Shown here piece by piece: positions 1 to 60,951 of a stretch of DNA of 64,000 nt. This stretch comes from Isurus oxyrinchus (taxonomy: Eukaryota). A model generated the notes under the pieces. It was not told the origin of the DNA, did no database searches, and saw nothing but the letters and a program-made list of their open reading frames with translations. The stretch covers positions 88,412,001 through 88,476,000 of the forward strand of contig JANJGN010000021.1 in NCBI GenBank assembly GCA_026770705.1, in the 5' to 3' direction. Within the stretch, counting starts at the first letter, position 1; each line of letters begins with the position of its first letter. A program made the translations under genes and the position numbers.

Positions 1-3000
1 CAGTCGGGAGATTGAAAACAGCACGAGAGGAGTCAGTCGGGAGATTGAAAACAGCATGAGAGGAGAGTCAGTCGGGAGATTGAAAACAGCACGACAGGAG
101 AGATGATTGGCAGATTGAAAACATCACGACAGGAGAGGTGATTGGCAGATTAAAAATAGCGCGACAGGAGAGTCAGTCGGGAGATTGAAAACAACGCGAG
201 AGGAGAGTCAGTTGGCAGATTAAAACAGCGCGAGAAGAGAGTCAGTCGGGAGATTGAAAACAGCTCGAGAGGAGAGGTGATTGGGAGATTGAAAATAGGG
301 CGAGAGGAGAGTCAGTCGGGAGATTCAAAGCAGTGCGAGAGGAGAGGTGATTGGGAGATTGAAAGCAGCACAAGAGGAGAGTCAGTCAGGAGATTGAAAA
401 CAGTGCGACAGGAGAGGTGTTTGCTAGATTCAAAACAGCGCGAGAGGAGAGTCAGTCGGGAGATGGAAAACAGCGCAAGAGGAGAGTCAGTCGGGAGATG
501 GAAAACAGCACGAGAGGAGAGTCAGTCGGGAGATTGTAAACAATGCGAGAGGAGAGTCACACGGGAGATTGAAAACAGTGTGAGAGGAGAGTCAGTCGGG
601 AGATTGAAAACAGCGTGAGAGGAGAGTCAGTCAGGACATTGAAAACAGCGTGAGAGGAGAGTCAGTTGGGAAACTGAAAATAGCGTGAGAGGAGAGTCAG
701 TCGGGAGATTGAAAACAGCGTGAGAGGAGAGTCAGTCGGGAGATTGAAAACAGCGTGAGAGGAGAGTCAGTTGGGAGTTTGAAAACAGCTTGAGAGGAGA
801 GGTGATTGGGAGATTGAAAACAGCGTCAGAAGAGAGTCAGTTTGGAGATTGAAAACAGCGCGAGAGGAGATTCAGTCGGGAGATTGAAAACAGCTCGAGA
901 GGAGACGTGATTGGGAGATTGAAAATAGGGCGAGAGGAGAGTCAGTCGGGAGATTCAAAGCAGTGCGAGAGGAGAGGTGATTGGGAGATTGAAAGCAGCA
1001 CGAGAGGAGAGTCAGTCGGGAGATTGAAAACAGCGCAAGAAGAGATTCAGTCGGGAGATTGAAAACAGCGTGATAGGAGAGTCAGTCGGGAGATGGAAAA
1101 CAGCGCAAGAGGAGAGGTGATTGGGAGATTGAAAACAGCACGAGAGGAGAGTCAGTCGGGAGATTGAAAACAGCGCAAGAGGGTAGTCAGTCGGGAGATT
1201 GAAAACAGCACGAGAGGAGAAGCGATTGTGAGATTGAAAACAGTGCGAGAGAAGAGGTGAATAGGAGCTTGAAAACAGCGTGTGAGGAGAGTCAGTCGCG
1301 AGGTTGAAAACAGCGCGAGAGGAGTCAGTCGGGAGATTGAAAACAGTGCGAGAGGAGAGTCAGTCGGGAGATTGATAACATCACGACAGGAGAGGTGATT
1401 GGCAGATTGAAAACAGCGCGAGAGGAGAGGTTATGGAGATTAAAAACAGCGCGACAGGAGAGTCAGTCGGGAGATTGAAAATAGCTCGAGAGGAGTGTCA
1501 GTCGGGAGATTGAAAACAGCACAAGAGGAGAGTCAGTCGGGAGATTGAAAACAACGCGAGAGGAGAGTCAGTTGGCAGATTAAAACAGCGCGAGAAGAGA
1601 GTCAGTCGGGAGATTGAAAACAGCATCAGAAGAGAGTCAGTCTGGAGATTGAAAACAGCTCGAGAGGAGAGGCGATTGGGAGATTGAAAATAGGGCGAGA
1701 GGAGAGTCAGTCGGGAGATTCAAAGCAGTGCGAGAGGAGAGGTGATTGGGAGATTGAAAGCAGCACGAGAGGAGAGTCAGTCGGGAGATTGAAAACAGCG
1801 CGAGAAGAGATTCAGTCGGGAGATTGAAAACAGCGTGATAGGAGAGTCAGTCGGGAGATGGAAAACAGCGCAAGAGGAGAGGTGATTGGGAGATTGAAAA
1901 CAGCACGAGAGGAGAGTCAGTCGGGAGATTGAAAACAGCGCAAGAGGGTAGTCAGTCGGGAGATTGAAAACAGCACGAGAGGAGAAGCGATTGTGAGATT
2001 GAAAACAGTGCGAGAGAAGAGGTGAATGGGAGCTTGAAAACAGCGTGTGAGGAGAGTCAGTCGCGAGGTTGAAAACAGCACGAGAGGAGATTCAGTCGGG
2101 AGATTGAAAACAGCTCGAGAGGAGAGGTGATTGGGAGATTGAAAATAGGGCGAGAGGACAGTCAGTCGGGAGATTCAAAGCAGCGCGAGAGGAGAGGTGA
2201 TTGGGAGATTGAAAACAGCGTGATAGGAGAGTCAGTCGGGAGATTGAAAACAGCATGATAGGAGAGTCAGTCGGGAGATGGAAAACAGCGCAAGAGGAGA
2301 GTCAGTCGGGAGATGGAAAACAGCGCAAGAGGAGAGTCAGTCGGGAGATTGAAAACAGCGCAAGAGGAGAGTCAGTCGTGAGATTGAAAACAGCGCAAGA
2401 AGACAGTCAGTCGGGAGATGGAAAACAGCATGAGAGGAGCGGTGATTGCGAGATTGAAAACAGCGCGAGAGGAGAGGCGATTGTGAGATTGAAAACAGAG
2501 TGTGAGGAGAGTCAGTCGGGAGATTGAAAACAGTGTGAGAGGAGAGGTGATTGGGTGATTGAAAATAGGGTGAGAGGAGAGGTGATTGGGAGATTGAAAA
2601 CAGCACGAGAGGAGAGGCGATTGTGAGATTGAAAACAGTGCGAGAGGAGAGGTGAATGGGAGCTTGAAAACAGCGCGAGAGGAGAGTCAGTCGGGAGACT
2701 GAAAATAGCGCGAGAAGATAGTCAGTCGGGAGATTGAAAACAACGCGAGAGGAGAGTCAGTCGAGAGATTGAAAACAGCCTGAGAGGAGAGTCAGTCGGG
2801 AGATTGAAAACAGCGCAAGAGGAGAGTCAGTCAGGAGATCTGAAACAGCGCGAGAGGAGAGGTTTTTGGGAGATTGAAAACAGCGCAAGAGGAGAGTCAG
2901 TCAGGAGATCTGAAACAGCGCGAGAGGAGAGGTTTTTGGGAGATTGAAAACAGCGCGAGAGGAGAGTCAGTCGGGAGATTGAAAACAGCGCAAGAAGACA

Positions 3001-6000
3001 GTCAGTCGGGAGATTGAAAACAGCACGAGAGGAGAGGCGATTGTGAGATTGAAAACAGTGCGAGAGGAGAGGTGAATGGGAGCTTGAAAACAGCGTGTGA
3101 GGAGAGTCAGTCGCGAGGTTGAAAACAGCACGAGAGGAGATTCAGTCGGGAGATTGAAAACAGCGCGAGAGGAGAGGTGATTGGGAGATTGAAAATAGGG
3201 CGAGAGGAGAGTCAGTCGGGAGATTCAAAGCAGTGCGAGAGGAGAGGTGATTGGGAGATTGAAAACAGCACGAGAGGAGAGTCAGTCAGGAGATTGAAAA
3301 CAGCGCGAGAGGAGAGTCAGTCGGGAGATGGAAAACAGCGCGAGAGGAGTCAGTCGGGAGATTGAAAACAGTGCGAGAGGAGAGTCAGTCGGGAGATTGA
3401 TAACATCACGACAGGAGAGGTGATTGGCAGATTGAAAACAGCGCGAGAGGAGAGGTTATGGAGATTAAAAACAGCGCGACAGGAGAGTCAGTCGGGAGAT
3501 TGAAAATAGCTCGAGAGGAGTGTCAGTCGGGAGATTGAAAACAGCACAAGAGGAGAGTCAGTCGGGAGATTGAAAACAACGCGAGAGGAGAGTCAGTTGG
3601 CAGATTAAAACAGCGCGAGAAGAGAGTCAGTCGGGAGATTGAAAACAGCATCAGAAGAGAGTCAGTCTGGAGATTGAAAACAGCTCGAGAGGAGAGGCGA
3701 TTGGGAGATTGAAAATAGGGCGAGAGGAGAGTCAGTCGGGAGATTCAAAGCAGTGCGAGAGGAGAGGTGATTGGGAGATTGAAAACAGCACGAGAGGAGA
3801 GTCAGTCAGGAGATTGAAAACAGCGCGAGAGGAGAGTCAGTCGGGAGATTGAAAACAGCGCGAGAGGAGTCAGTCGGGAGATTGAAAACAGTGCGAGAGG
3901 AGAGTCAGTCGGGAGATTGATAACATCACGACAGGAGAGGTGATTGGCAGATTGAAAACAGCGCGAGAGGAGAGGTTATGGAGATTAAAAACAGCGCGAC
4001 AGGAGAGTCAGTCGGGAGATTGAAAATAGCTCGAGAGGAGTGTCAGTCGGGAGATTGAAAACAGCACAAGAGGAGAGTCAGTCGGGAGATTGAAAACAAC
4101 GCGAGAGGAGATTCAGTTGGCAGATTAAAACAGCGCGAGAAGAGAGTCAGTCGGGAGATTGAAAACAGCATCAGAAGAGAGTCAGTCTGGAGATTGAAAA
4201 CAGCTCGAGAGGAGAGGCGATTGGGAGATTGAAAATAGGGCGAGAGGAGAGTCAGTCAGGAGATTCAAAGCAGTGCGAGAGGAGAGGTGATTGGGAGATT
4301 GAAAGCAGCACGAGAGGAGAGTCAGTCAGGAGATTGAAAGCAGCACGAGAGGATAGACAGTCGGGAGATTGAAAACAGCACGAGAGGAGAGGCGATTGCG
4401 AGATTGAAAACAGCGCGAGAGGAGAGTCAGTCGGGAGATGGAAAACAGCGCAAGAAGAGAGTCAGTTGGGAGATTGAAAACAGCGCGAGAAGAGAGGCGA
4501 TTGGGAGATTGAAAACAGCGCGAGAGGAGAGTCAGTCGGGAGACTGAAAACAGCGCGAGAGGAGAGTCAGTCGGGAGATTGAAAACAGCACGAGAGGAGT
4601 CAGTCGGGAGATTGAAAACAGCATGAGAGGAGAGTCAGTCGGGAGATTGAAAACAGCACGACAGGAGAGATGATTGGCAGATTGAAAACATCACGACAGG
4701 AGAGGTGATTGGCAGATTAAAAGCAGCGCGACAGGAGAGTCAGTCGGGAGATTGAAAACAACGCGAGAGGAGAGTCAGTTGGCAGATTAAAACAGCGCGA
4801 GAAGAGAGTCAGTCGGGAGATTGAAAACAGCTCGAGAGGAGAGGTGATTGGGAGATTGAAAATAGGGCGAGAGGAGAGTCAGTCGGGAGATTCAAAGCAG
4901 TGCGAGAGGAGAGGTGATTGGGAGATTGAAAGCAGCACAAGAGGAGAGTCAGTCAGGAGATTGAAAACAGTGCGACAGGAGAGGTGTTTGCTAGATTCAA
5001 AACAGCGCGAGAGGAGAGTCAGTCGGGAGATGGAAAACAGCGCAAGAGGAGAGTCAGTCGGGAGATGGAAAACAGCACGAGAGGAGAGTCAGTCGGGAGA
5101 TTGTAAACAATGCGAGAGGAGAGTCACACGGGAGATTGAAAACAGTGTGAGAGGAGAGTCAGTCGGGAGATTGAAAACAGCGTGAGAGGAGATTCAGTCA
5201 GGACATTGAAAACAGCGTGAGAGGAGAGTCAGTTGGGAAACTGAAAATAGCGTGAGAGGAGAGTCAGTCGGGAGATTGAAAACAGCGTGAGAGGAGAGTC
5301 AGTCGGGAGATTGAAAACAGCGTGAGAGGAGAGTCAGTTGGGAGTTTGAAAACAGCTTGAGAGGAGAGGTGATTGGGAGATTGAAAACAGCGTCAGAAGA
5401 GAGTCAGTTTGGAGATTGAAAACAGCGCGAGAGGAGATTCAGTCGGGAGATTGAAAACAGCTCGAGAGGAGACGTGATTGGGAGATTGAAAATAGGGCGA
5501 GAGGAGAGTCAGTCGGGAGATTCAAAGCAGTGCGAGAGGAGAGGTGATTGGGAGATTGAAAGCAGCACGAGAGGAGAGTCAGTCGGGAGATTGAAAACAG
5601 CGCAAGAAGAGATTCAGTCGGGAGATTGAAAACAGCGTGATAGGAGAGTCAGTCGGGAGATGGAAAACAGCGCAAGAGGAGAGGTGATTGGGAGATTGAA
5701 AACAGCACGAGAGGAGAGTCAGTCGGGAGATTGAAAACAGCGCAAGAGGGTAGTCAGTCGGGAGATTGAAAACAGCACGAGAGGAGAAGCGATTGTGAGA
5801 TTGAAAACAGTGCGAGAGAAGAGGTGAATAGGAGCTTGAAAACAGCGTGTGAGGAGAGTCAGTCGCGAGGTTGAAAACAGCGCGAGAGGAGTCAGTCGGG
5901 AGATTGAAAACAGTGCGAGAGGAGAGTCAGTCGGGAGATTGATAACATCACGACAGGAGAGGTGATTGGCAGATTGAAAACAGCGCGAGAGGAGAGGTTA

Positions 6001-9000
6001 TGGAGATTAAAAACAGCGCGCCAGGAGAGTCAGTCGGGAGATTGAAAATAGCTCGAGAGGAGTGTCAGTCGGGAGATTGAAAACAGCACAAGAGGAGAGT
6101 CAGTCGGGAGATTGAAAACAACGCGAGAGGAGAGTCAGTTGGCAGATTAAAACAGCGCGAGAAGAGAGTCAGTCGGGAGATTGAAAACAGCATCAGAAGA
6201 GAGTCAGTCTGGAGATTGAAAACAGCTCGAGAGGAGAGGCGATTGGGAGATTGAAAATAGGGCGAGAGGAGAGTCAGTCGGGAGATTCAAAGCAGTGCGA
6301 GAGGAGAGGTGATTGGGAGATTGAAAGCAGCACGAGAGGAGAGTCAGTCGGGAGATTGAAAACAGCGCGAGAAGAGATTCAGTCGGGAGATTGAAAACAG
6401 CGTGATAGGAGAGTCAGTCGGGAGATGGAAAACAGCGCAAGAGGAGAGGTGATTGGGAGATTGAAAACAGCACGAGAGGAGAGTCAGTCGGGAGATTGAA
6501 AACAGCGCAAGAGGGTAGTCAGTCGGGAGATTGAAAACAGCACGAGAGGAGAAGCGATTGTGAGATTGAAAACAGTGCGAGAGAAGAGGTGAATGGGAGC
6601 TTGAAAACAGCGTGTGAGGAGAGTCAGTCGCGAGGTTGAAAACAGCACGAGAGGAGATTCAGTCGGGAGATTGAAAACAGCTCGAGAGGAGAGGTGATTG
6701 GGAGATTGAAAATAGGGCGAGAGGACAGTCAGTCGGGAGATTCAAAGCAGCGCGAGAGGAGAGGTGATTGGGAGATTGAAAACAGCGTGATAGGAGAGTC
6801 AGTCGGGAGATTGAAAACAGCATGATAGGAGAGTCAGTCGGGAGATGGAAAACAGCGCAAGAGGAGAGTCAGTCGGGAGATGGAAAACAGCGCAAGAGGA
6901 GAGTCAGTCGGGAGATTGAAAACAGCGCAAGAGGAGAGTCAGTCGTGAGATTGAAAACAGCGCAAGAAGACAGTCAGTCGGGAGATGGAAAACAGCATGA
7001 GAGGAGCGGTGATTGCGAGATTGAAAACAGCGCGAGAGGAGAGGCGATTGTGAGATTGAAAACAGAGTGTGAGGAGAGTCAGTCGGGAGATTGAAAACAG
7101 TGTGAGAGGAGAGGTGATTGGGTGATTGAAAATAGGGTGAGAGGAGAGGTGATTGGGAGATTGAAAACAGCACGAGAGGAGAGGCGATTGTGAGATTGAA
7201 AACAGTGCGAGAGGAGAGGTGAATGGGAGCTTGAAAACAGCGCGAGAGGAGAGTCAGTCGGGAGACTGAAAATAGCGCGAGAAGATAGTCAGTCGGGAGA
7301 TTGAAAACAACGCGAGAGGAGAGTCAGTCGAGAGATTGAAAACAGCCTGAGAGGAGAGTCAGTCGGGAGATTGAAAACAGCGCAAGAGGAGAGTCAGTCA
7401 GGAGATCTGAAACAGCGCGAGAGGAGAGGTTTTTGGGAGATTGAAAACAGCGCAAGAGGAGAGTCAGTCAGGAGATCTGAAACAGCGCGAGAGGAGAGGT
7501 TTTTGGGAGATTGAAAACAGCGCGAGAGGAGAGTCAGTCGGGAGATTGAAAACAGCGCAAGAAGACAGTCAGTCGGGAGATTGAAAACAGCACGAGAGGA
7601 GAGGCGATTGTGAGATTGAAAACAGTGCGAGAGGAGAGGTGAATGGGAGCTTGAAAACAGCGTGTGAGGAGAGTCAGTCGCGAGGTTGAAAACAGCACGA
7701 GAGGAGATTCAGTCGGGAGATTGAAAACAGCGCGAGAGGAGAGGTGATTGGGAGATTGAAAATAGGGCGAGAGGAGAGTCAGTCGGGAGATTCAAAGCAG
7801 TGCGAGAGGAGAGGTGATTGGGAGATTGAAAACAGCACGAGAGGAGAGTCAGTCAGGAGATTGAAAACAGCGCGAGAGGAGAGTCAGTCGGGAGATGGAA
7901 AACAGCGCGAGAGGAGTCAGTCGGGAGATTGAAAACAGTGCGAGAGGAGAGTCAGTCGGGAGATTGATAACATCACGACAGGAGAGGTGATTGGCAGATT
8001 GAAAACAGCGCGAGAGGAGAGGTTATGGAGATTAAAAACAGCGCGACAGGAGAGTCAGTCGGGAGATTGAAAATAGCTCGAGAGGAGTGTCAGTCGGGAG
8101 ATTGAAAACAGCACAAGAGGAGAGTCAGTCGGGAGATTGAAAACAACGCGAGAGGAGAGTCAGTTGGCAGATTAAAACAGCGCGAGAAGAGAGTCAGTCG
8201 GGAGATTGAAAACAGCATCAGAAGAGAGTCAGTCTGGAGATTGAAAACAGCTCGAGAGGAGAGGCGATTGGGAGATTGAAAATAGGGCGAGAGGAGAGTC
8301 AGTCGGGAGATTCAAAGCAGTGCGAGAGGAGAGGTGATTGGGAGATTGAAAACAGCACGAGAGGAGAGTCAGTCAGGAGATTGAAAACAGCGCGAGAGGA
8401 GAGTCAGTCGGGAGATGGAAAACAGCGCGAGAGGAGAGTCAGTCAGGAGATTGAAAACAGCGCGAGAGGAGTCAGTCGGGAGATTGAAAACAGCACGAGA
8501 GGAGAGTCAGTCGGGTGATTGATAACATCACGACAGGAGAGGTGATTGGCAGATTGAAAACAGCGCGAGAGGAGAGGTTATGGAGATTAAAAACAGCGCG
8601 ACAGGAGAGTCAGTCGGGAGATTGAAAATAGCTCGAGAGGAGTGTCAGTCGGGAGATTGAAAACAGCACAAGAGGAGAGTCAGTCGGGAGATTGAAAACA
8701 ACGCGAGAGGAGAGTCAGTTGGCAGATTAAAACAGCGCGAGAAGAGAGTCAGTCTGGAGATTGAAAACAGCTCGAGAGGAGAGGCGATTGGGAGATTGAA
8801 AATAGGGCGAGAGGAGAGTCAGTCGGGAGATTCAAAGCAGTGCGAGAGGAGAGGTGATTGGGAGATTGAAAGCAGCACGAGAGGAGAGTCAGTCGGGAGA
8901 TTGAAAACAGCGCGAGAAGAGATTCAGTCGGGAGATTGAAAACAGCGTGATAGGAGAGTCAGTCGGGAGATGGAAAACAGCGCAAGAGGAGAGGTGATTG

Positions 9001-12000
9001 GGAGATTGAAAACAGCACGAGAGGAGAGTCAGTCAGGAGATTGAAAACAGCGCAAGAGGATAGTCAGTCGGGAGATTGAAAACAGCACGAGAGGAGAAGC
9101 GATTGTGAGATTGAAAACAGTGCGAGAGAAGAGGTGAATGGGAGCTTGAAAACAGCGTGTGAGGAGAGTCAGTCGCGAGGTTGAAAACAGCACGAGAGGA
9201 GAATTAGTCGGGAGATTGAAAACAGCTCGAGAGGAGAGGTGATTGGGAGATTGAAAATAGGGCGAGAGGACAGTCAGTCGGGAGATTCAAAGCAGCGCGA
9301 GAGGAGAGGTGATTGGGAGATTGAAAGCAGCGCGAGTGGAGAGTCAGTCGGGAGATTTGAAACAACGCGAGAGGAGAGGTGTTTGGGAGATTGAAAACAG
9401 CGCGAGAGGAGAGTCACTCGGGAGATTGAAAACAGTGCAAGAAGATAGTCAGTCGGGAGATGGAAAACAGCATGAGAGGAGAGGTGATTGCGAGATTGAA
9501 AACAGCGGGAGAGGAGAGTCAGTCGGGAGATGGAAAACAGCGCAAGAGGAGAGTCGGTCGGGAGATGGAAAACAGCGCAAGAGTAGAGTCAGTCGTGAGA
9601 TTGAAAACAGCACGAGAGGAGAGTCAGTCGGGAGATTGAAAACAGCGTGATAGGAGAGTCAGTCGGGAGATTGAAAACAGCATGATAGGAGAGTCAGTCG
9701 GGAGATGGAAAACAGCGCAAGAGGAGAGTCAGTCGGGAGATGGAAAACAGCGCAAGAGGAGAGTCAGTCGGGAGATTGAAAACAGCGCAAGAGGAGAGTC
9801 AGTCGTGAGATTGAAAACAGCGCAAGAAGACAGTCAGTCGGGAGATGGAAAACAGCATGAGAGGAGTGGTGATTGCGAGATTGAAAACAGCGCGAGAGGA
9901 GAGGTGATTGGGAGATTGAAAACAGAGTGTGAGGAGAGTCTGTCGGGAGATTGAAAACAGTGTGAGAGGAGAGGTGATTGGGTGATTGAAAATAGGGTGA
10001 GAGGAGAGGTGATTGGGAGATTGAAAACAGCACGAGAGGAGAGGCGATTGTGAGATTGAAAACAGTGCGAGAGGAGAGGTGAATCGGAGCTTGAAAACAG
10101 CGCGAGAGGAGAGTCAGTCGGGAGACTGAAAATAGCGCGAGAAGATAGTCAGTCGGGAGATTGAAAACAACACGAGAGGAGAGTCAGTCGAGAGATTGAA
10201 AACAGCCTGAGAGGAGAGTCAGTCGGGAGATTGAAAACAGCGCGAGAGGAGAGTCAGTCAGGAGATCTGAAACAGCGCGAGAGGAGAGGTTTTTGGGAGA
10301 TTGAAAACAGCGCGAGAGGAGAGGTTTTTGGGAGATTGAAAACAGCGCGAGAGGAGAGTCAGTCAGGAGATTGAAAACAGCGTGAGAGGAGAGTCAGTCG
10401 GGAGATTGAAAACAGCGCAAGAAGATAGTCAGTCGGGAGATAGAAAACAGCACGAGAGGAGAGGTGATTGCGAGATTGAAAACAGTGCGAGAGGAGAGGT
10501 GATTGGGAGATTGAAAGCAGCGCGAGAGGAGAGTCCGTCGGGAGATTGAAAACAGCCTGAGAAGATAGTCAGTCGGGAGATGGAAAACAGCATGAGAGTA
10601 GAGGTGATTCCGAGACTGAAAACAGCGTGTGAGGCGAGTCCGTCAAGAGATTTAAAAGAGCGCGAGAGGAGAGGTGATTGGGAGATTGAAAACAGCGTGA
10701 AAGGAGAGTCAGTCGGGAGATTGAAAACAGCGCGAGATGAAAGTCAGTCAGGAGATTGAAAACAGCGCGAGAGGAGAGGTGATTGGGAGATTGAAAACAG
10801 CCTGAGAAGAGAGTCAGTCGGGAGATTGAAAACAGCGCGAGAGGAGAGGTTATGGAGATTAAAAGCAGTGCGACAGGAGAGTCAGTCGGGAGATTGAAAA
10901 CAGCATGAGAGGAGAGTCAGTTGGCAGATTAAAACAGCGCGAGAAGAGAGTCAGTCTGGAGATTGAAAACAGCGCGAGAGGAGAGGTGATTGGGAGATTG
11001 AAAATAGGGCGAGAGGAGAGTCAGTCGGGAGATTCAAAGCAGTGCGAGAGGAGAGGTGATTGGGAGATTGAAAGCAGCACGAGAGGAGAGTCAGTCAGGA
11101 GATTGAAAACAGCGCGAAAGGAGAGGTGTTTGGGAGATTGAAAACAGCGCGAGAGGAGAGTCAGTCGGGAGATTGAAAACAGCGCGAGAGGAGGGTCAGT
11201 CGGGAGATTGATAACATCGCGACAGGAGAGGTGATTGGCAGATTGAAAACAGCGCGAGAGGAGAGGTGATTGGGAGATTAAAAACAGCGCGAGAGGAGTG
11301 TCAGACGGGAGATTGAAAACAACGCGAGAGGAGAGTCAGTCGGGAGATTGAAAACAGCGCGAGAGGAGTGTCAGTCGGGAGATTGAAAACAGCTTGAGAG
11401 GAGAGGTGATTGGGAGATTGAAAACAGCGCGAGAAGAGAGTCATTCTGGAGATTGAAAACAGCTCGAGAGGACAGGTGATTGGGAGATTGAAAGCAGCAC
11501 GAGAGGAGAGTCAGTCTGGGGATTGAAAACAGCGTGATAGGAGAGTCAGTCGTGAGATTGAAAACAGCGCGAGAGGAGAGTCAGTCGGGAGATTGAAAAC
11601 AGCACGAGAGGAGAGTCAGTCGGGAGATTGAAAACAATGCGAGAGGAGAGTCACACGGGAGATTGAAAACAACGCGAGAGGAGAGTCAGTCGGGAGACTG
11701 AAAACAGTGCGAGAAGATAGTCAGTCGAGAGATTGAAAACAGCCTGAGAGGAGAGTCAGTCGGGAGATTGAAAACAGCGTGAGAGGAGATTCAGTCGGGA
11801 GATTGAAAACAGCTTGAGAGGAGAGGTGATTGGGAGATTGAAAACAGCGTCAGAAGAGAGCCAGTCTGGAGATTGAAAACAGCATGAGAGGAGATTCAGT
11901 TGGGAGATTGAAAACAGCATGAGAGCAGAGTCACACGGGAGATTGAAAACAGCTCGAGAGGAGAGGTGATTGGGAGATTGAAAATAGGGCGAGAGGACAG

Positions 12001-12660
12001 TCAATCGGGAGATTCAAAGCAGCGCGAGAGGAGAGGTGATTGGGAGATTGAAAGCAGCGCGAGAGGAGAGGTGTTTGGGAGATTCAAAGCAGCGCGAGAG
12101 GAGAGTCAGTCAGGAGATTTGAAACAGCGCGAGAGGAGAGTCACTCGGGAGATGGAAAACAGCGGAAGAGGAGAGTCAGTCTGGAGATTGAAAACAGCGC
12201 GAGAGGAGAGTCAGTCGGGAGATTGAAAACAGCACGAGAGGAGAGGTGATTGCGAGATTGAAAACAGTGCGAGAGGAGAGGTGATTGGGAGATTGAAAAC
12301 AGTCCGAGAGGAGTGCCAGTCGAGAGATTGAAAACAGCTTGAGAGGAGAGTCAGTCAGGAGACTGAAAATAGCGCGAGAAGATAGTCCGTCGAGAGATTG
12401 AAAACAGCGCGAGAGGAGAGTCCATCGGGAGATTGAAAACAGCGGAGAGGACAGGTGATTGGGAGATTGAAAACAGTGCGAGAGGAGAGTCAGTCGGGAG
12501 ATTCAAAGCAGCGTGAGAGGAGAGGTGATTGGGAGATTGAAAACAGCGCGAGAGGAGAGGTTATGGAGATTAAAAACAGTGCGACAGGAGAGTCAGTAGG
12601 GAGATGGAAAACAGCGCGAGAGGAGAGTCGGTTAGGAGATTGAGAACAGCGTGAGAGGAG
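1..12660 (+). repeat. 35-bp satellite array, consensus GAGAGGAGA(GTCAGTC/GGTGATT)GGGAGATTGAAAACAGCGC; continues off the left edge
   Basis: Direct 35-bp periodicity throughout. Near-identical blocks recur at offset 4567 (e.g. 277 vs 4844, 2255 vs 6822, 3177 vs 7744). Confidence 0.98.
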
Positions 12661-13970
12661 ATAAACCAGTTTATATTTCACCCCTTCCTGGGATTCGCCT
12701 AGTTCTGTCGAAGGGTCATGAGGACTCGAAACGTCAACTCTTTTCTTCTCCGCCGATGCTGCCAGACCTGCTGAGTTTTTCCAGGTAATTCTGTTTTTGT
12801 TTTGGATTTCTAGCATCCACAGTTTTTTGTTTTTTGTTTTTATCTCTGTGTTTAATTGACTGCCACTGCTCTTCAAGAAATGCCTACCTCCTTGAAGAAG
12901 TTCTGTTTGTCTCTGTGACAAGATTTCCGTATCTCTCTTTTGCCTTGTTCACCTTCCTTGCTTTCCATTTCTCTCCTGGTGCTTGACAAGGTGTTTACTA
13001 AAACTCGCTTTCACAGCCATATCTCCTTTCTCAGTGACTGTCTCCGTCTCCGACTTACCCCACGTGGATTTCAACTGAAATTCCACCCCTCATGTTTCGA
13101 ACCCACCCAGGATTACTGGTATTTCCGGGACATAAAAGGTTTCTCGGACTGCTGTTCCCGTCACATCCTGAGATCCACACTCAGTGCCATGCGCCGCCAT
13201 ATGAACACACTCGACCTCTCCCTCCAGCAGCACCGCCATACCCTTTTTCAAAGCTGCGCGTGCCCCCAGTTTCATTTTATTCTTCGTCTCATCCGACGCC
13301 TCAACAAGAAACTTTTTCTCTTTCTCTCAAGTGCTAAGGAACGCAAGCTCCGACAACTCATTGACACCAACACCCATCTAGGACCCTCCACCCCCACCTG
13401 TCCCTCCGTCCCCACCCCATCTTCCAATCCCAACCCCAGCCGTGTATTCACTATACCCCCTGACCTTCCCCTCTCCGACACTGAACGTTCAGTGCTCAGC
13501 AAAGGACTTCGTTTCATACCCCTACGCCCTCACCTCAATGAATTTCGGGCTCGGCATGATGCTGAACTCTTCTTCCGCCGTCTTCGTCTCCGGGCTCACT
13601 TCTTTGGGCAGGAGTCCTCTCCCCGTTCAATGGATCCTTTCACCCACCTCCAATATTCTCCTCCACCTGGACCCCTCCCTCTAGATTCTTACCTTCTCTT
13701 GATCTTTTCATTGAGAACTGTCGGCGTGACATTAGTCGTCTCAATTTCTCTGCTCCTCTCACCCATTCTAATCTGTCTCTCTCTGAACTTACTGCACTCC
13801 ATTCTCTCAGGTCCAACCCTGACATCGTCATCAAACCCGCTGACAAGGGTGGTGCTGTTGTTGTCTGGCGCACTGACCTCTACCTTGCGCAGGCTGAGCG
13901 TCAACTCGCAGACACTTCCTCCTACCTCTCCCTGGACCATGACCCCACCACTGAACATCAAGCCATTGTT
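12661..13970 (+). mobile_element. Penelope-like retroelement, 5' part (pseudo-LTR plus N-terminal ORF), 3'-truncated
   Basis: ORF 12940 encodes LSDTERSVLSKGLRFIP...FFRRLRLRAHFF. After a frameshift comes NPDIVIKPADKGGAVVVW (the PLE DKG motif, ~13815-13868). The upstream sequence matches the tails of the PLE copies at 22.0 and 37.5 kb. Confidence 0.9.
12701..12739 (+). ncRNA. Minimal type I hammerhead ribozyme motif in the PLE pseudo-LTR (variant core)
   Basis: AGTT-CTGTCGA-A-GGGTC-ATGAG-GACTC-GAAA-CG-TC-AACT: stem I AGTT/AACT, stem II GGGUC/GACUC, GAAA, palindromic ACGU stem III, UC cleavage site. The core is CUGUCGA rather than CUGANGA. Confidence 0.7.
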
Positions 13971-21487: not shown

Positions 21488-22082
21488 ACTGGAGGAACAG
21501 CACCTCATCTTCCGATTAGGCACTTTACAGCCTTCCGGACTTAACTTTAAGTTCAACAACTTCAGATTATGAACTCTCTCCTCCATCCCCACCCCCTTTC
21601 CGATCCCCCTTTTTCCAATAATTTATAATTTAAAAAAATATTTATTTTTTAAAATATATTTTTCTTTTCCCACCTATTGTTATTATTTTTAAATTTATTT
21701 CCATCCATTGTTTTATCTCTACATTTTAGCCTATTCCAATCCCTTCACCCCACCCCCACTAAGGTTATCTGTCCCTTGCTCATCCTGCTTTCTACCCTTA
21801 ATGTCACCATTGGCACATTCTTTAGCTAATATTACCACCGTCAACACCCCTTTGACCTTTATGACATCTTTGTCAATCTCTCCTTTGCTTTCACCTATCA
21901 CTAGCCCTCTATCCAGCTCTACCTGTCCCACCCCCACCCCCTCCCCTTAAACAGCTTATATTTCACCACATTTCTATTTCCCTTTAGTTCTGAAGTGTCA
22001 AACAGACTCGAAACATTAACTCTGTCTTCCTCTCCACAGATGCTGTCAGACCTGCTGAGTTTTTCCAGCAATTTTTGTTTCG
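21488..22082 (+). mobile_element. Penelope-like element 3' end (end of GIY-YIG ORF, UTR, pseudo-LTR with degenerate hammerhead at ~21986-22021)
   Basis: CTGGAGGAACAGCACCTCATCTTCCGATTAGGCACTTTACAGCC (LEEQHLIFRLGTLQP) is colinear with 36901 onward. Confidence 0.85.
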
Positions 22083-22118
22083 GTTCACTTTCAAAGTGAT
22101 AGTATCGAAATGACTTAC

Positions 22119-22424
22119 CAACGAGTTTCAGGTATGTAGTCCATTTCCATTTCTCACCTACAGTGAAGGTGTAAACCCCTTGGTCACCGGGGTTTAAATT
22201 ATTTAACGTCAGTGATCCAATGGACGAATTGAAATGTAAGCGAGATTTGAAATGGTTATTTGGCTCCTCCATTGGGTAGTTTGGTACGTAATCCAAGATC
22301 ATCACAAGGTTCCCATTGCTGCCAGTGAAACTCCAAATAATTTCACTGTTGCTGAGATTAGCTTCATGTTCAGGATCCAGTAAAACCGATGAACCAATGG
22401 CAGCAAACATTTCTTTTCTTCCAG
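22119..22424 (-). CDS. IgV-set domain exon lacking the canonical disulfide (CD2/SLAM/CEACAM-type N-domain); exon 2 of the minus-strand gene
   Basis: aatcag acceptor and gtaagt donor; 306 nt; phase 1-1. Translation GRKEMFAAIGSSVLLDP...IIWSF...FKSRLHFNSSIGSLTLNNLNPGDQGVYTFTV...YLKLV splices in frame to 17866. Confidence 0.88.
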
Positions 22425-22529
22425 CTGATTAACATAAAACAACCAGTTTATTCCTTTAAAGTGTGACAGTGAAACACTGGAATTCAGTGCTCTTTTGTCC
22501 TTCCTGCCCTTCTTCCCCCTTTCACCGAA

Positions 22530-22704: not shown

Positions 22705-23042
22705 CATTTATAGGGAGTCTTTCACGACCTCAGTGCATCCAAAAGCTCCATGCAGCCCACTGAAGTATGTTACGAAGCGCAGTCGCTGTTATAATGTAGA
22801 AAACGTGACTTGTCAGTTTATGCACAGCAAGATCCCACAAGCAGTAGTGTGATAACAACTAGGTAATCTGGTTTTGGCACATTGACTTGAGGGATGAATG
22901 TTAGCCACAACACTGGGGATAACTCCCACGCTCCTTCTTTGCAAAGGCCATGGGATCTTTCACATGTACATTGACAGCAACTGGGCTCTCAGTTTAACAC
23001 CTCATCTGAAAGATGGCACCTCTGACTGTGCTGAACTCCCTT
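22705..23042 (-). mobile_element. Deu-domain SINE (SacSINE/AmnSINE-like) fragment
   Basis: The reverse complement contains CACAGTCAGAGGTGCCATCTTTCAGATGAGGTGTTAAACTGAG and AAAGATCCCATGGC, recalled as Deu-SINE core motifs. Confidence 0.65.
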
Positions 23043-23139
23043 GGAGGGAGGAGGAGAGGGAAGGGGAGGGGCATGCTGAGCAGGATGAAGAGCCCTGAAA
23101 GAGGCAGCTGGGAAGGAGCAACAGAGCCCGGTGGGGAGG

Positions 23140-23650
23140 GGTGGGAGGAAAGGGCCCTGGAGGGAACAGATAGGCCTTTCTGCAGCCATAGATGTGACTC
23201 CAGGATCCCTGGCGCCAGGATCAAGGATGTCACTGAATGGCTGCTGGACATTCTGAAGGGCGAGGGTGAGCAGCCAGAGGTTGTGGTCCATATTAGTGCC
23301 AATGACATGGTTAAAAAGAGGGATGAGGTCCTGAGAGCAGAATATAGGGAGCTAAGAAATAAATTAAAAAGCAGGACCCCAAAGGTAGTAATCTCAGGAT
23401 TACTCATAGTGCCATGCGCTAGCGTAATCAGGAATAGGAGAATAGATCAGATGAAAGCATGGCTGGAGCGATGGTGTAGGAGGGAGGGATTTAGATTCCC
23501 GAGGCATAGGACTGATTCTGGGGAAGATGGGACCTGTACAAGTTGGACGGGTTGCACCCCAGCAAGATTGTGACCAATACCCTCACAAGGGCATTCGCTA
23601 GTACTGTGGGGGAAGGGCTAACTAAATTGGCAGGGGGATGGGAACATGAG
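23140..23650 (+). mobile_element. CR1 ORF1 SGNH-esterase fragment
   Basis: GTDRPFC...PGARIKDVTE...VVVHISAND...VVISGLL...WLERWCRREGFRF...DGLHP; homologous to 52.7-53.2 kb. Confidence 0.85.
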
Positions 23651-29289: not shown

Positions 29290-30965
29290 AGGAAAGATGA
29301 GGCAGCAGCATTCGCAACAATCTTCAGCCAGAAGTGCCATGTGGATGATCCACCTCGGCCTCCTCTGGAGGTCCCCAGCATCACAGATGCCAATCTTCAG
29401 CCAATTCGATTCACTCCACGTGATATCAAGAAATGGCTGAAAGCACTGGATACTGCAAAGGCGAGGGGCCCTGTCAACATTCCGGTAATAGTACTGAAGA
29501 CTTCTGCTCCAGAACTTGCCGCACCCTTAGCCAAGCTGTTCCAGTACAGCTACAACACTGGCATATTTCCGGCCATGTGGAAAATTGTCCAGGTATGTCC
29601 TGTACACAAAAAGCAACCCGACCAATTACCCCTCCATCGGTCTACTCTCCATCGTCAGTAAACTAATGGAAGGAGTCATCAACAGTGCTATCAAGCGGCA
29701 CTTGCTTAGCAACATCCAGCTTACTGATGCCCAGTTTGGGATCTGCCAGGGCCACTCAGCTCTTGACCTCATTACAGCCTTGGTTCAAACATGGACAAAA
29801 GAGCTGAACTCCCGAGGTGAGATGAGAGTGACCGACCTTGACATCAAGGCAGCATTTGACCAAGTGTAGCATCAAGGAGCCCTAGTAAAACAAGTCAATG
29901 GGAATCAGGAGGAAAACTCTCTGCTGGTTGGAGTCATACCAAGAACAAAGGAAGTTGGTGTGGTTGTTGCCCTGGGACATCACTGCAGGAGTTCCTCAGT
30001 AAAAGTGTCCTAGGCCCAACCATCTTTAGCTGCTTCATCAATGACCTTTCTTCCATCATAAGGTCAAAAGTGGGAATGTTCGCTGATGATTGCCCAATGT
30101 TCAGCACCATTCTCAACTCCTCAGATACTGAAGCAGCCCATGTCCAAATGCAGCAAGATCTGGACAATATCCAGGGCTGACAAGTGGCAAGTAACACCAC
30201 TCAAGTGTCAGGCAATGACCATCTCCAACAAGAGAGAATCCAACCATTGCCCCTTGATGTTCAATGGCATTACCATCACTGAATCCCCCACTATCAACAT
30301 CTTGGTGGTTATCATTGACCAGAAACTGAACTGGACAAGCCATATAAATACTGTGGCTACAAGAGCAGGTCAGAAGCTAGGAATCCTGCGACAAGTAACT
30401 CACCTCCTGTCTCTCCAAAGCCTATCCACCATCTACAAGGCACAAGTCAGGAGTGTGATGGAATACTCCCCACTTGCCTGAATGAGTGCTTCTCCTACAA
30501 CACTGAAGAAACTGGACACCATTCAGGACAAAGCAGTTCACTTGATTGGCACCACATCCACAAACATTCATTTCCTCCACCACTGACACACAGTAGCAAC
30601 AGTATGTACCATCTACAAGATGCACTGCAGGAATTCACCAAGGCTCCTTAGACAGCACCTTCCAAACCCATGATCACTACCACCTAGAGAGACAAAGGCA
30701 GCAGATATATGGGAACACCACCACCTGGAAGTTCCCCTCCAAGTCACTCACCATCCTGACTTGGAAATATATCGCCGTTCCTTCACTGTCGCTGGGTCAA
30801 AATCCTGGAACTCCCTCCCTAACAGCACTGTGGGTGTACCTACACCACATGGACTGCAGCGGTTCAAGAAGGTGGCTCACCACCACCTTCTCAAGGGCAA
30901 TTAGGGATGGGCAATAAATGCTGGCCCAGCCAGCGAAGCCCACATCCTGTGAATGAATAAAAAAA
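29290..30965 (+). mobile_element. Family B LINE, 5'-truncated (RT + 3' UTR + A tail)
   Basis: LDIKAAFDQV, FADD, YKAQVRSVMEYSPLA; ends GGGCAATAAATGCTGGCC...GAATGAATAAAAAAA. Confidence 0.9.
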
Positions 30966-33032: not shown

Positions 33033-33094
33033 ATCACTTCTTGGCCTTTTGGCTAAGATCAGTTTCTAAGTGCAGCATCTGTTCTGATCAGCTT
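33033..33094 (+). pseudogene. U2: U2 snRNA 5' fragment (nt 1-55) forming the head of a retroelement
   Basis: ATCACTTCTTGGCCTTTTGGCTAAGATC[AGTTTCT]AAGTGCAGCATCTGTTCTGATCAGCTT versus recalled U2 ATCGCTTCTCGGCCTTTTGGCTAAGATCAAGTGTAGTATCTGTTCTTATCAGTTT: 49/55 matches plus a 7-nt insertion. Confidence 0.9.
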
Positions 33095-34995
33095 CTTCTG
33101 CAAGTGCAAGCTTCAGTGCCTAACACTGGGAGCTTGAAAAGGTGATGGCTGCAACCAGTTGAGCCCCAAACCAGGGGGTACATAACACCGTTAGGGTGGC
33201 AGTGAAGGACAGTGAAGGAGATACACCCATGGACCGTGCCTTCTTCATTAAGAGAATCCTTTTGGAGTCCTGTGGATTTGAAGCCATGGAGATCGACTCT
33301 CTGCAGGATTTCTCCAGCGTTGGGTACTTTGATGTGACTTTCAAGAATATTGCTGCCTGCGTCAAGTTCCTGAAGGACTTCAAGAAGAGAGACCTGCTGC
33401 AGATGAGGATCCAGACGGTGGAGCTGCTTTTTTCTCTGCCATTGCAACGGGACCGAGTGGTGATTGTGTACCTCTACAATCCCCATGTCCCTGTGGCCGA
33501 CGTGTTCACCTTCCTCGCTGGGAACGTCGACAAGGTTGGGAGATGCACCGAGGGGCGAGACGCCTTTGAGATTTGGACAAGCAAACGCCAGGTTAAGGTC
33601 ACGCTCAAGGCGGATGGTAAAGGAGCCGTCTTCCACCCTCCTTCCAGATTCGCTATCGGGGGAAGCCGTGGCTACCTTGTCTATGCTGGGCACCACAAAC
33701 TTCGTCGCTCATGTGGCAAGTCTGGTCATGTGGCGGCCAACTGCAGCGCCGTCCTCTGCAAGACATGCAAACAGGAAGGGCACCAGACAAAGGACTGCAA
33801 ACAGACTAAGTGCTGCAACCTGTGAGACGAGGCAGGCCACCTCTAGAAGACCTGCCCAATCGCTGCCTCGGGCAGGCCTATGCACAGGCGGCCTAAACCA
33901 ACAAGGGGGGAAGCAGGCAAAATGGTCAATGTCGCTACTGCCAAGGACACTTGCAACCCTCCAAGCACCAAGGCCTCCAATAAGCACAATGGTACAAAGG
34001 AGATCAAGATGAAGGGATGCAAACGGCCAAACAACTGCACTGCCCAATGAGCCTCCCACTCCTCAGTAGAGCGAATCAATGGAGGAGGAAGCAGTAGACA
34101 ATCAACTGGGCAAGTGGCAGCTGGTGAAGAGAGCCAAAAGGAAGAAGGGGCTAAGAAGGGACCAAGCCACTTCCCAGACAAGTGGCAAAAGGCGTCTCCC
34201 ATCTGACACGGATGCCCCCGCACCCCCAAAAACCCCCCGCTCCCCACCACCACTCCCCACCCCCCCACCCCCCTCCCCACCTCCCCCCAGCTCCTTTAGC
34301 CCCTGGGATCGACAGCTGCAATCAGGCTGCTGAAGATGAGTGTTTTAAACTTTTGCTTTAACTGAAAAGGTAATTTAAGTGTGTGTAGAACACAGTGAGG
34401 GGCTGAGTATCCTAAAGAGCGACTTGTAAGTCTGTGTGACTTTAAACTGTGTGAATGTATGTAGTGAATACTAAATGTATCATAATTGTATCTTCAACTC
34501 AGTGAAAGACGCTCTTTGGTCTGCACAAAACTTATTGATCTTCCAGTGCAAAGAGTTGTCCCCGACCGAGTGTTGCAGATTGGCACATTCCAAGGACCAG
34601 GACTATGTGCTGAGACACGCACTAAAGCTTGGGGCAGCCGGCGGAAAGGCCCAATGGGGAAAGATTACTGTCTAAGACCTTTCTGCCATCGTGCTCCGAG
34701 GGGCTGGGAATTGTATAGACTCCTCGGGCTGTATGCAGTGAATTAAATTCAATAATTGTATTGAAGCACCTCAGAGTGCAACATGATGTACGTTGATAAC
34801 TTCAATACCATTGCACTGTCTGACTGTCTGTAATGATCATATTGAAATGACTAATATTCATTGATTGTATTAAAGCACCTCGTGCTCCATGTGTAAAATT
34901 TGAATCTGATTGCACTTTTTGTGATGGCCATTTAGAAATGTTTTGTAATGTTCTTCCAGATATTTTATGAATAAAGTATATTTGTCCAAAAAAAA
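33033..34995 (+). mobile_element. Tx1-clade non-LTR element: U2 head, gag-like ORF1 with 3 CCHC knuckles, only the C-terminal tip of ORF2, 3' UTR, poly(A)
   Basis: ATG at 33145, with an in-frame TGA at codon 6, then GVHNTVRV. Knuckles: SCGKSGHVAANC, CKTCKQEGHQTKDC, CNL*DEAGHL*KTC. ORF2 tip NSVKDALWSAQN...QWGK at ~34495-34675. AATAAA at ~34970, then an A run. Confidence 0.85.
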
Positions 34996-58199: not shown

Positions 58200-60951
58200 G
58201 CTGACCAATAACTATCCTCATGGAATCATACCTTACAGATAAAGTCTCAGACTCCAGCATCACCATCCCTGGGTATGGCCTGTCCCACCGGCAGGACAGA
58301 TCCAACAGAGGTGGAGGCACAGTGGTACACAGTCGGGAGCGAGTTGCCCTGGGAGTCCTCAACATTGACTCCGGACCCCATGAAGTCTCATGGCATCAGG
58401 TCAAAGATGGCAAGGAAACCTCCTGCTGACTACCACGTACCGTCTAACCTCAGCTAATGAATCAGTGCTCCTCCATGTTGAACACCACTTGTAGGAAGAA
58501 CTGAGGCTGGCAAGGGTGCAGAATGTACTCTGGGTGGGGGACATCAATGTCCAACACCAAGAGTGGCTGGGTAGCACTACTATAGATCGAGCTGGTTGAG
58601 TCCTAAAGGACATAGCTGCTAGACTGGGTCTGCGGCAGGTGGTGAGGGAACCAATAGGCAAAAATATACTTGAGCTCATCCTCACCAACCTGCCTGCCTC
58701 AAATGCATCTGTCCATGACAGTATCGGTAGGAGTGTCGTTGTGGAGACAAAGTCCCGACTTCACATTGAGGAAACCCTCCATCGTGTTGTGTGACATTAC
58801 CACTGTGCTAAATGGGCTGGATTTCGAACAGATCTAGCAACTCAAGACTGGGCATCCATGAGGTGCTGTGGGCCATCAGCAGCAGCACTGTACCCTACCT
58901 CAACCTGTAACCTCATGCCCTGGCATATCCCTCACTTTACCATTACCATCAGCACTGGTTCAATGAAGAGTGCAGGAGGGCATGCCAAGAGCAGCACCAG
59001 GCATACCTAAAAATGAGGTATCAATGTAGTGAAACTACAACACAGGACTACTTGCGTGCCAAACAGCATAAGCAGCAAGTGATAGATAGAGCTAAGCAAT
59101 CCCAGAACCAACGGATTAGATCTAAGCTCTGCAGTCCTGCCACATCCTGTCGTGAATGGTGCTGGGCGATTAAACAACTCACTGGAGGAGGAGGCTCCAC
59201 AAGTAACCCCATCCTTAATGATAGAGGAGCCCAGCACCTCAGTGCAAAAGATAAGGCTGAAGAATTCGCAAGAATCTTCAGCCAGAAGTGTCGAGTGAAT
59301 GATCCATCTTGGCCTCCTCCGAAGGTCTCCAGCATCACAGATGCCAGTCTTCAACAAATTTGATTAATTCCACGTGATATCAAGAAATGGCTGAAGGCAC
59401 TGGATGCTGCAAAGGCTATGGGCCCTGACAATATTCCATCAATAGTACTGAAGACTTATGCTCCAGAACTTGCCACGCCCCTAACCAAGCTGTTCTAGTA
59501 CAGCTACGACACTGGCATCTGCCTGGCTATGTGGAAAATTGTCCAGGTTGGTCCTGTACACAAAAAGCAGGACAACTTCAACTTGGCCAATTATGTCCCC
59601 ATCATTCTACTCTTGGTCATCAGTAAAGTAATGGAAGGAGTCATCAACAGTGCTATCAAGCGGCACTTGCTTAGCAATAACCTGCTCACTGATGCCCAGT
59701 TTAGGTTCCGCCAGGGCCACTCAGGTCTTGACCTCATTACAGCCTTGGTTCAAACATGGACAAAAGAGCTGAACTCCCAAGGTGAGGTGAGAGTGACCGT
59801 CCTTGACATCAAGGCAGCATTTGACCAAGTGTGGCATCAAGGAGCTCTGACAAGACTGGAGTCAATGGGAATCAGGGGCAAAACACTCCACTGACTGAAG
59901 TCAGACCTAGAACAAAGGAAGGTGGTTGCAGTTGTAGGAGGTCAGTCATCTCAGCTCCAGGACAAGACTGTAGGAGTTCCTCAGGATGGTGTCCTCGGCC
60001 TGACCATCTTCAGCTGCTTCATCAATGACCTTCCTTTCATCATAAGGTCAGAAGTGGGGATGTTCGCTGATGATTGCACAATGTTCAGCACCATTCATGA
60101 CTCCTCAGATACTGAAGAAGTCCATGTCCAAATGTAGCAAGACCTGTACAATATCCAGGCTTGGGCTGACAAGTGGCAAGTAACATTTGTGCAACATAAG
60201 TGTCAGGCACTGACCATCTCCAACAAGAGAGAATCCAACCACCAGCACTTGATGTTCAATGGCATCACCATCACAAAATCTCTCACTATCAACATCCTGA
60301 GGGATACCATTGACCAGAAACTGGACTGGACTAGCCATATAAATACTGTGGCTGCAAGAGTAGGTCAGAGGTTAGGAATCCTGGGACGAGTAACTCTTGA
60401 CCCCCCAAAGCCTGTCCACCATCTACTAGGCACAAATCAGGAGTGTGGTGGAATACTCCCCACTTATCTGGATGACAACAGCTCCCACAACACTAAAGAA
60501 GCTTGACACTGTCCAGGACAAAGCAACCCACTTGATTGGCACCCGATCCACAAATATTCACTGCCTCCACCACCGACGCACGGTAGCAGCAGTCCGAACC
60601 ATCTAAAAGATGTACTGCAGGAACTCACCAAGGCTTAGACAGCACCTTCCAAATCCACGGCCACTACCATCTAGAAGGACAAGGGCAGTAGATAGATGGA
60701 AACACCACCACCTGGATGTTCCCCTCCAAGTCACTCACCACCCTGACTTGGAATCATATTGCCATTCCCACATTGTCACTGGGTCAAAATCGTGGAATCC
60801 CTTCCTAACAGCACTGTGGGTGTATCTACTCCAGATGGACTGCAGCGGTTCAAGAAGGCAGCTCACCCCCACCATCTCCGGGGCAGCTAGGTATGGGCAA
60901 TAAATGCTGGCCCAGCCAGCGAAGCCCACATCCCGCAAATGACTAAAAAAA
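58200..60951 (+). mobile_element. Family B LINE, ORF2 nearly complete (EN + RT), decayed
   Basis: ESYLTD...RQDRSNRGGG, VGDINV, LDIKAAFDQVWHQG, GVPQDGVLG, FADDCT, then AATAAA and an A tail. Confidence 0.92.

Follow-up and report, generated by a model that had tools for sequence, protein, structure and literature searches.

A probable rearranged LINE copy with a U2 snRNA head in Isurus oxyrinchus, and insertions of its Tx1-type lineage into U1 and U2 genes

Among the described retroelements which are connected with snRNA genes, Keno is closest to the element considered here. In the available parts of the sources it belongs to the Tx1 clade, is specific for U2 and inserts 37 nt from the U2 5' end (PMC6136364, PMC4640811, PMC4494074). 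The crocodilian Tx1-Mar families are Keno-related Tx1 LINEs whose own 5' end consists of a U1 or U2 5' piece and whose insertions lie outside snRNA genes; Tx1-11_Crp is U2-headed, and Tx1-2_Crp, Tx1-2B_Crp and Tx1-4_AMi are U1-headed (PMC4494074). SINEU-1 to SINEU-3 combine a U1/U2-derived head with a poly(A) tail and a Tx1 partner, and the transcription of snRNA-headed retroposons was named an open question (PMC4494074). Non-autonomous LINEs that possess an ORF1 are represented by HAL1, HeT-A and Ag-Sponge, with origins in L1, Jockey and CR1; a Tx1 origin and an snRNA head are not listed for these in the available parts of the sources (PMC5786205, PMC5753468).

The locus described here lies in a 64,000-nt stretch of the I. 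oxyrinchus genome (contig JANJGN010000021.1, positions 88,412,001 to 88,476,000, forward strand), which is referred to as the window. A first-pass annotation had read the unit at 33033..34995 as a member of a non-autonomous, gag-only family with a U2 head and knew of no description of such a combination; U2- and U1-headed Tx1 families are, however, already published (PMC4494074). Based on domains and insertion site, the lineage to which the unit belongs would be a Keno-like Tx1 LINE, the comparison with the named Keno being one of descriptions. It shares with Keno a zinc-knuckle ORF1, an APE-RT ORF2 and the same U2 site and 3' flank. In contrast to Keno, most copies of the shark lineage lie off snRNA genes, the specificity being loose rather than that described for Keno at U2 (U1 or U2 sequence stands behind 5 of 89 unselected 3' ends). 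Moreover, the lineage hits U1 at nt 39/40 more often than U2, off-target copies keep the snRNA head, and the window copy itself is off-target and a broken composite. Whereas the crocodilian families prefer a Mariner transposon as target (Tx1-4_AMi an LTR retrotransposon), the shark lineage still enters U1 and U2 genes (PMC4494074), and unlike the short, non-coding SINEUs (PMC4494074) it is a coding LINE of 5.3 kb.

Composition of the window copy

The unit on the plus strand starts at 33033..33094 with nt 1-55 of U2 snRNA, as annotated before; the assignment is based on an Rfam U2 match at 33033 (E 1.7e-4, under the gathering score) and on an alignment to the genome's own U2 gene. Within this head nt 1-37 correspond to the sequence 5' of the Keno cut site and nt 38-55 to the length of a target duplication. 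A 7-nt insert after nt 28/29 is private to the window copy and was found in none of 20 aligned sister heads. The head is followed by a 5'UTR of 50 nt (33095..33144, +), which is typical of the U2(1-55)-headed subfamily and common to its sister copies with 79-86% identity. ORF1 (33145..34214, +; ATG at 33145) shows Pfam matches to two RNA-binding domains (PF23057 and PF23058) and to the zinc knuckle PF00098. The zinc-knuckle ORF1 of the first-pass annotation is thus present in its domains but not in its length. The frame is dead and 3'-truncated, comprises 352 of about 521 codons (~70%) and contains frameshifts as well as five stops against the subfamily frame, among them codon 6, 33823 and 33844. 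Its pN/pS of 0.53 lies inside the range of other dead copies (0.37-1.16) and is uninformative on selection.

Behind ORF1 the order of the parts departs from that of a LINE. A C-rich run outside the LINE (34215..34293, +) precedes a low-copy segment which is no part of the element (34294..34451, +) and has 74-77% identity to six other places, representing four independent loci; at one of these homologues (L053) a short C-rich run likewise stands ahead of it. Then follows, out of order and ahead of the ORF2 tip, a 40-bp piece of the family's 3'UTR (34452..34491, +), which is 100% identical to other copies but differs from the corresponding portion of the 3' piece that follows. The last 61 codons of ORF2 (34490..34675, +; 79% identity to a sister copy) and the 3'UTR (34676..34995, +) with AATAAA at 34970-34975 and an A8 tail at 34988-34995 complete the unit. 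The earlier description of an ORF2 tip of about 60 codons is therefore correct in extent, but this tip is not joined to ORF1, as about 240 bp of foreign DNA and the 40-bp 3'UTR piece lie between them. Alignment to a full-length sister revealed that 3.6 kb of the full copy are missing. The 3'UTR, polyadenylation signal and poly(A), the CT-rich and TG-rich flanks and the lack of U2 sequence downstream of the unit were all described correctly. A target-site duplication was not found around the unit (score 3 versus a 99% null of 8.5), which alone is weak evidence, because just 5 of 21 other tested copies passed.

Full-length relatives and insertions into U2 and U1 genes

A search of the 5.0-Gb genome with the unit's 5' 368 bases gave 1002 candidates, the best 40 of which were scored. 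The joint between U2 head and UTR was common to 24 of the 39 other scored matches (79-86% identity). Out of 20 U2-headed copies that were extended, 19 could be traced to the same 3' end. Their lengths are 5.0-5.6 kb in 13 cases, 4.5-4.9 kb in four and about 3 kb in two. ORF2 DNA is kept in all 19, and their deletions are all different. The sisters are thus 5.3-kb elements with ORF2, and RT as well as zf-RVT domains were detected in them. In a U1-headed relative a stop-free ORF1 frame of 541 codons occurs together with an endonuclease-RT frame, and across the copies the domain set of a Tx1-type element is encountered: RNA-binding domains and CCHC in ORF1, AP endonuclease, RT and a C-terminal zinc domain in ORF2, and poly(A). 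The best matches of the family RT are unnamed APE-RT proteins (46-48%), with one named "transposon TX1 149 kDa" at 34%; the named protein with the highest identity derives from a catshark (64% over 38% of the query).

The heads of the U2(1-55) subfamily begin at or just inside nt 1; in 19 of 20 copies their 3' end lies at nt 53-55, the remaining one being internally deleted. A commoner subfamily has heads that stop at about nt 37. Among the first 30 of 271 exact matches to a U2 motif, 26 head this LINE lineage and four are U2 retrocopies; U2 upstream DNA was present at none of these 30 loci. A short SINEU-like U2-headed family, which was considered as a candidate, was rejected as none occurred among the same 30 matches. 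In five of 21 copies tested, target duplications at non-snRNA sites enclose the head, which hence belongs to the RNA that was copied. It is thereby borne out, as annotated before, that the family transposes together with its U2 head and inserts outside U2 genes.

The snRNA genes themselves are targets too: the lineage enters U2 at nt 37/38 and U1 at nt 39/40, with duplications of 16-20 bp. Behind one copy stand U2 38-191 and the genuine downstream flank, and U2 38-57 separates this copy from its tandem partner; another is inserted at nt 38 of a sister copy's head. From the insertion at nt 37/38 with its duplication it follows that a head of nt 1-37 equals the cut site and a head of nt 1-55 the cut site plus the duplication. 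The head types are swappable and include U2 1-37, U2 1-55, U1 1-32, U1 1-57 and one compound of U2 and U1, in which U2 11-49 stands ahead of a U1-headed copy (L175:1501-1800). Contig C30 carries a separate U2 tandem array (L069-L077) with a period of about 2.05 kb. The insertion into a real U2 gene on C30 is 5'-truncated and without the U2 5' part; as the distances between the U2 genes of this contig are whole multiples of the period of about 2.05 kb (best 48 matches), no insertion is visible in the main U2 array.

For the detection of insertions into U1, a pattern of the element's tail followed by snRNA flank was used. It gave 39 matches, composed of 32 U1-like, five U2 and two other sequences. 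The reversed pattern is an unfair null, the tail not occurring reversed, and long continuations into U1 or U2 were relied on instead. Thirty of the 39 flank matches were fetched: 16 continue into long U1, for the most part from nt 40/41 (a single tandem array accounts for four of these), two into long U2, and five have a short spacer (U1 40-57 or U2 38-56) before another copy, while the weaker remainder consists of two partial U1 matches and five unconvincing ones. The genuine U1 3' flank was found at 11 checked loci. At three loci the U1 upstream flank lies directly ahead of the element, and two of these are decayed copies which have a degraded head and U1 40-164 behind. The insertions at U1 nt 39/40 (L183-L212, L215-L228) show duplications of 16-18 bp, are often in tandem and outnumber the U2 insertions found. 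Targeting of U1 by this lineage is thus a fact in this genome. Short U1 heads were missed by Rfam; by alignment to the genome's U1 gene they were clear in four of seven cases, weak in one and absent in two.

Several arrangements of U1 and U2 sequences with this LINE were observed besides. Six loci (L021, L022, L024, L027, L028 and L030) represent a subfamily headed by U1 1-32 with a 130-nt 5'UTR segment that is absent from the U2(1-55) subfamily. On contig C21 (76.78-76.80 Mb; L088-L090) there is a tandem array with units of 7.2-7.4 kb, each of which consists of a full-length copy with a U2(2-34) head and, behind it, U1 41-164; neighboring units are 97.8-99.8% identical. Contig C29 (L065-L068, L092-L094) contains repeated blocks in which U1 and U2 genes occur linked to each other, along with fragments of this LINE.

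The agreement of head length with cut site plus target duplication, for U2 as well as for U1, points to read-through from a host snRNA promoter. An snRNA promoter would make a read-through RNA starting at snRNA nt 1, ORF2 would copy this RNA together with the head, and most of the new copies would land off-target, where they are without a promoter. A different origin of the heads was proposed for the crocodilian SINEUs, namely template switching (PMC4494074). Applied to the shark lineage, the element RNA would have been left for free U2 snRNA and the resulting head fixed in a master with another upstream promoter. The occurrence of several head types and of the compound head would fit such switching, as would the search for a promoter-bearing U2 master (U2 upstream DNA, head and element), which gave no match with one strict pattern for the U2(1-55) subfamily. 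Promoters other than those of snRNA genes are also used: the copy L091 (C3:186.91 Mb) has a 5' extension of 635 bp inside its 16-bp duplication, from which it follows that upstream-driven transcripts were transposed; with 87% identity to the DNA that lies upstream of the C21 array, the extension looks like a 5' transduction. The 3' ends of the heads, however, are fixed at nt 37 or nt 54/55, that is, at the cut site or at the cut site plus the duplication (U2 38-56/57), and for U1, too, heads and duplications have a common end at about nt 57, whereas the crocodilian junctions are spread over 22 nt (PMC4494074). We therefore regard template switching as improbable and prefer read-through from the snRNA promoter.

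The relation between head length, cut site and duplication is a testable pointer to such read-through for both snRNAs. A Tx1 endonuclease which acts on two snRNA genes at near-equal distance from their start, with only a short motif shared between them, bears in addition on the question of how LINEs change their targets. The lineage itself is of modest importance, and the window locus is ordinary.

A U1-headed ORF1-only family and the origin of the window copy

Two of the U1-inserted copies share a joint in which the ORF1 stop is followed by U1 40-53 and then by the 3'UTR. Using this joint as query, 20 joint-spanning matches (81-100%) were obtained on 14 contigs among the best 40 scored. The U1 40-53 piece is present at the joint in 19 of these 20 copies, and one has a shorter form. 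Full copies have a size of 1.82-1.92 kb (about 1.85 kb) and contain no ORF2 tip; their heads are clearly U1 in six cases and U2 in none, and target duplications were detected in five of 15 tested. The majority ORF1 reading of nine copies is open for 519 codons. The copies are 90% alike, compared with 85.5% in the window's subfamily, which indicates that the ORF1-only family is the younger one. The pN/pS against the nearest autonomous group is 0.38 (21 N and 16 S changes), a value that also covers the time before the deletion. In the ORF1 tree the nine copies do not form one clade. Members are located at C6:86.14 Mb, C21:40.45 Mb and 18 more places (L233-L252, L263-L280). A real U1 gene, recognizable with its upstream flank, harbors one decayed ORF1-only copy (L213). 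A U1-headed, ORF1-only amplified family is hence real in this genome. With its shared joint and target duplications it resembles elements of the HAL1 type, as far as these are described in the available parts of the sources, in that it arose by deletion, has ORF1 only and was amplified; the window unit, by itself, is no family of this type.

Taken together, we consider it somewhat more probable than not that the lineage is an undescribed relative of Keno which has acquired U1 as its main snRNA target, cuts about 38-40 nt behind the start of U1 and U2, uses the host snRNA promoter in place of one of its own and gave rise to the ORF1-only family, a "half-Keno", via a deletion that fused the end of ORF1 to the U1 duplication of a tandem insertion. 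A literature search, in which few subscription papers were covered, returned neither a U1-targeting non-LTR or Tx1 element nor a Tx1-derived ORF1-only family, which is weak evidence of novelty; in the main text of PMC13343379 Tx1, Keno and snRNA are not mentioned.

The window copy stands outside this ORF1-only family. In the ORF1 tree it groups with the U2(1-55) subfamily (support 100/99); the tree is star-like, the end branch of the window copy measures 0.09-0.12, and its closest relative is 86-89% identical. A genome search with the middle of the window unit found end-to-end cover by the window only (best 40 of 636 candidates; in a second search 3 of 3 scored). The 29 nearest 3' tips all extend further into ORF2, none of them beginning at the window's joint, and among 280 examined loci the three internal joints are spanned by none besides the window's own four entries. 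Such joint searches score the best 40, and copies spanning the joint would rank first, as they did in the search for the sister family. Thus, of the two junctions singled out for a genome-wide comparison by the first-pass annotation, that between U2 and UTR recurs and that between ORF1 and the ORF2 tip was found at no other of the loci compared. The foreign segment precedes a U2-headed copy at two of its homologous loci, at one of them within a 635-bp extension inside the copy's 16-bp target duplication, and the loci homologous to the foreign middle share no flank with the window. The segment may represent host DNA that came to lie between two insertions, or a second insertion may have brought it along as its leader.

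These observations bear on three explanations of the unit. In size and layout it does resemble a half-LINE, and the ORF1-only family just described belongs to the same lineage, which would make an amplified U2-headed ORF1-only family at the window conceivable. That family, however, differs in its whole ORF1, its joint, the lack of an ORF2 tip and its U1 head, and it occupies another region of the tree, whereas the window unit has unique joints, a truncated ORF1 with five stops and no target duplication, and its sisters are 5.3-kb elements with ORF2. We consider membership of the window unit in such a family very unlikely, and the gag-only family proposed for this locus was rejected, as no second copy with the joints was found. 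A composite middle that is unique and contains a low-complexity C-rich run could also have been made by the assembly; the inserted segment, though, is homologous at 74-77%, and thus with some divergence, to low-copy sequence that is real, it does not repeat nearby DNA, and an artefact is likewise very unlikely. Very probably the unit is one copy, dead and rearranged, of a Tx1-type LINE with two ORFs and a length of 5.3 kb, the U2 head of which likely comes from a source copy in a U2 gene that was transcribed by the promoter of this gene. After the insertion of this copy, a deletion or recombination would have removed 3.6 kb with the end of ORF1, the endonuclease and the reverse transcriptase. 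The same event would have set the 5' piece beside foreign DNA and beside either one 3' piece or two, for which a second insertion is a possible source. The window locus itself is ordinary debris.

Further observations in the window

With regard to sequence data, no RNA run was listed as holding the queried words; of these words, about a third occurred in runs sequenced from a second species. Within the window, positions 1-12661 are occupied by a purine-rich tandem repeat with a period of 35 bp and about 363 copies. Two repeats of 1.7 kb at 29293-30965 and 59247-60951 are 84% identical, and further partial copies occur in the window. An open frame at 23010-23573 on the plus strand has a weak match to GDSL/SGNH hydrolases (E 1.3e-5); GDSL/SGNH domains occur in ORF1 of CR1/L2-type LINEs. 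On the minus strand an open frame at 21922-22428, about 11 kb from the element, encodes an immunoglobulin V-set domain (PF07686, E 1.9e-9).
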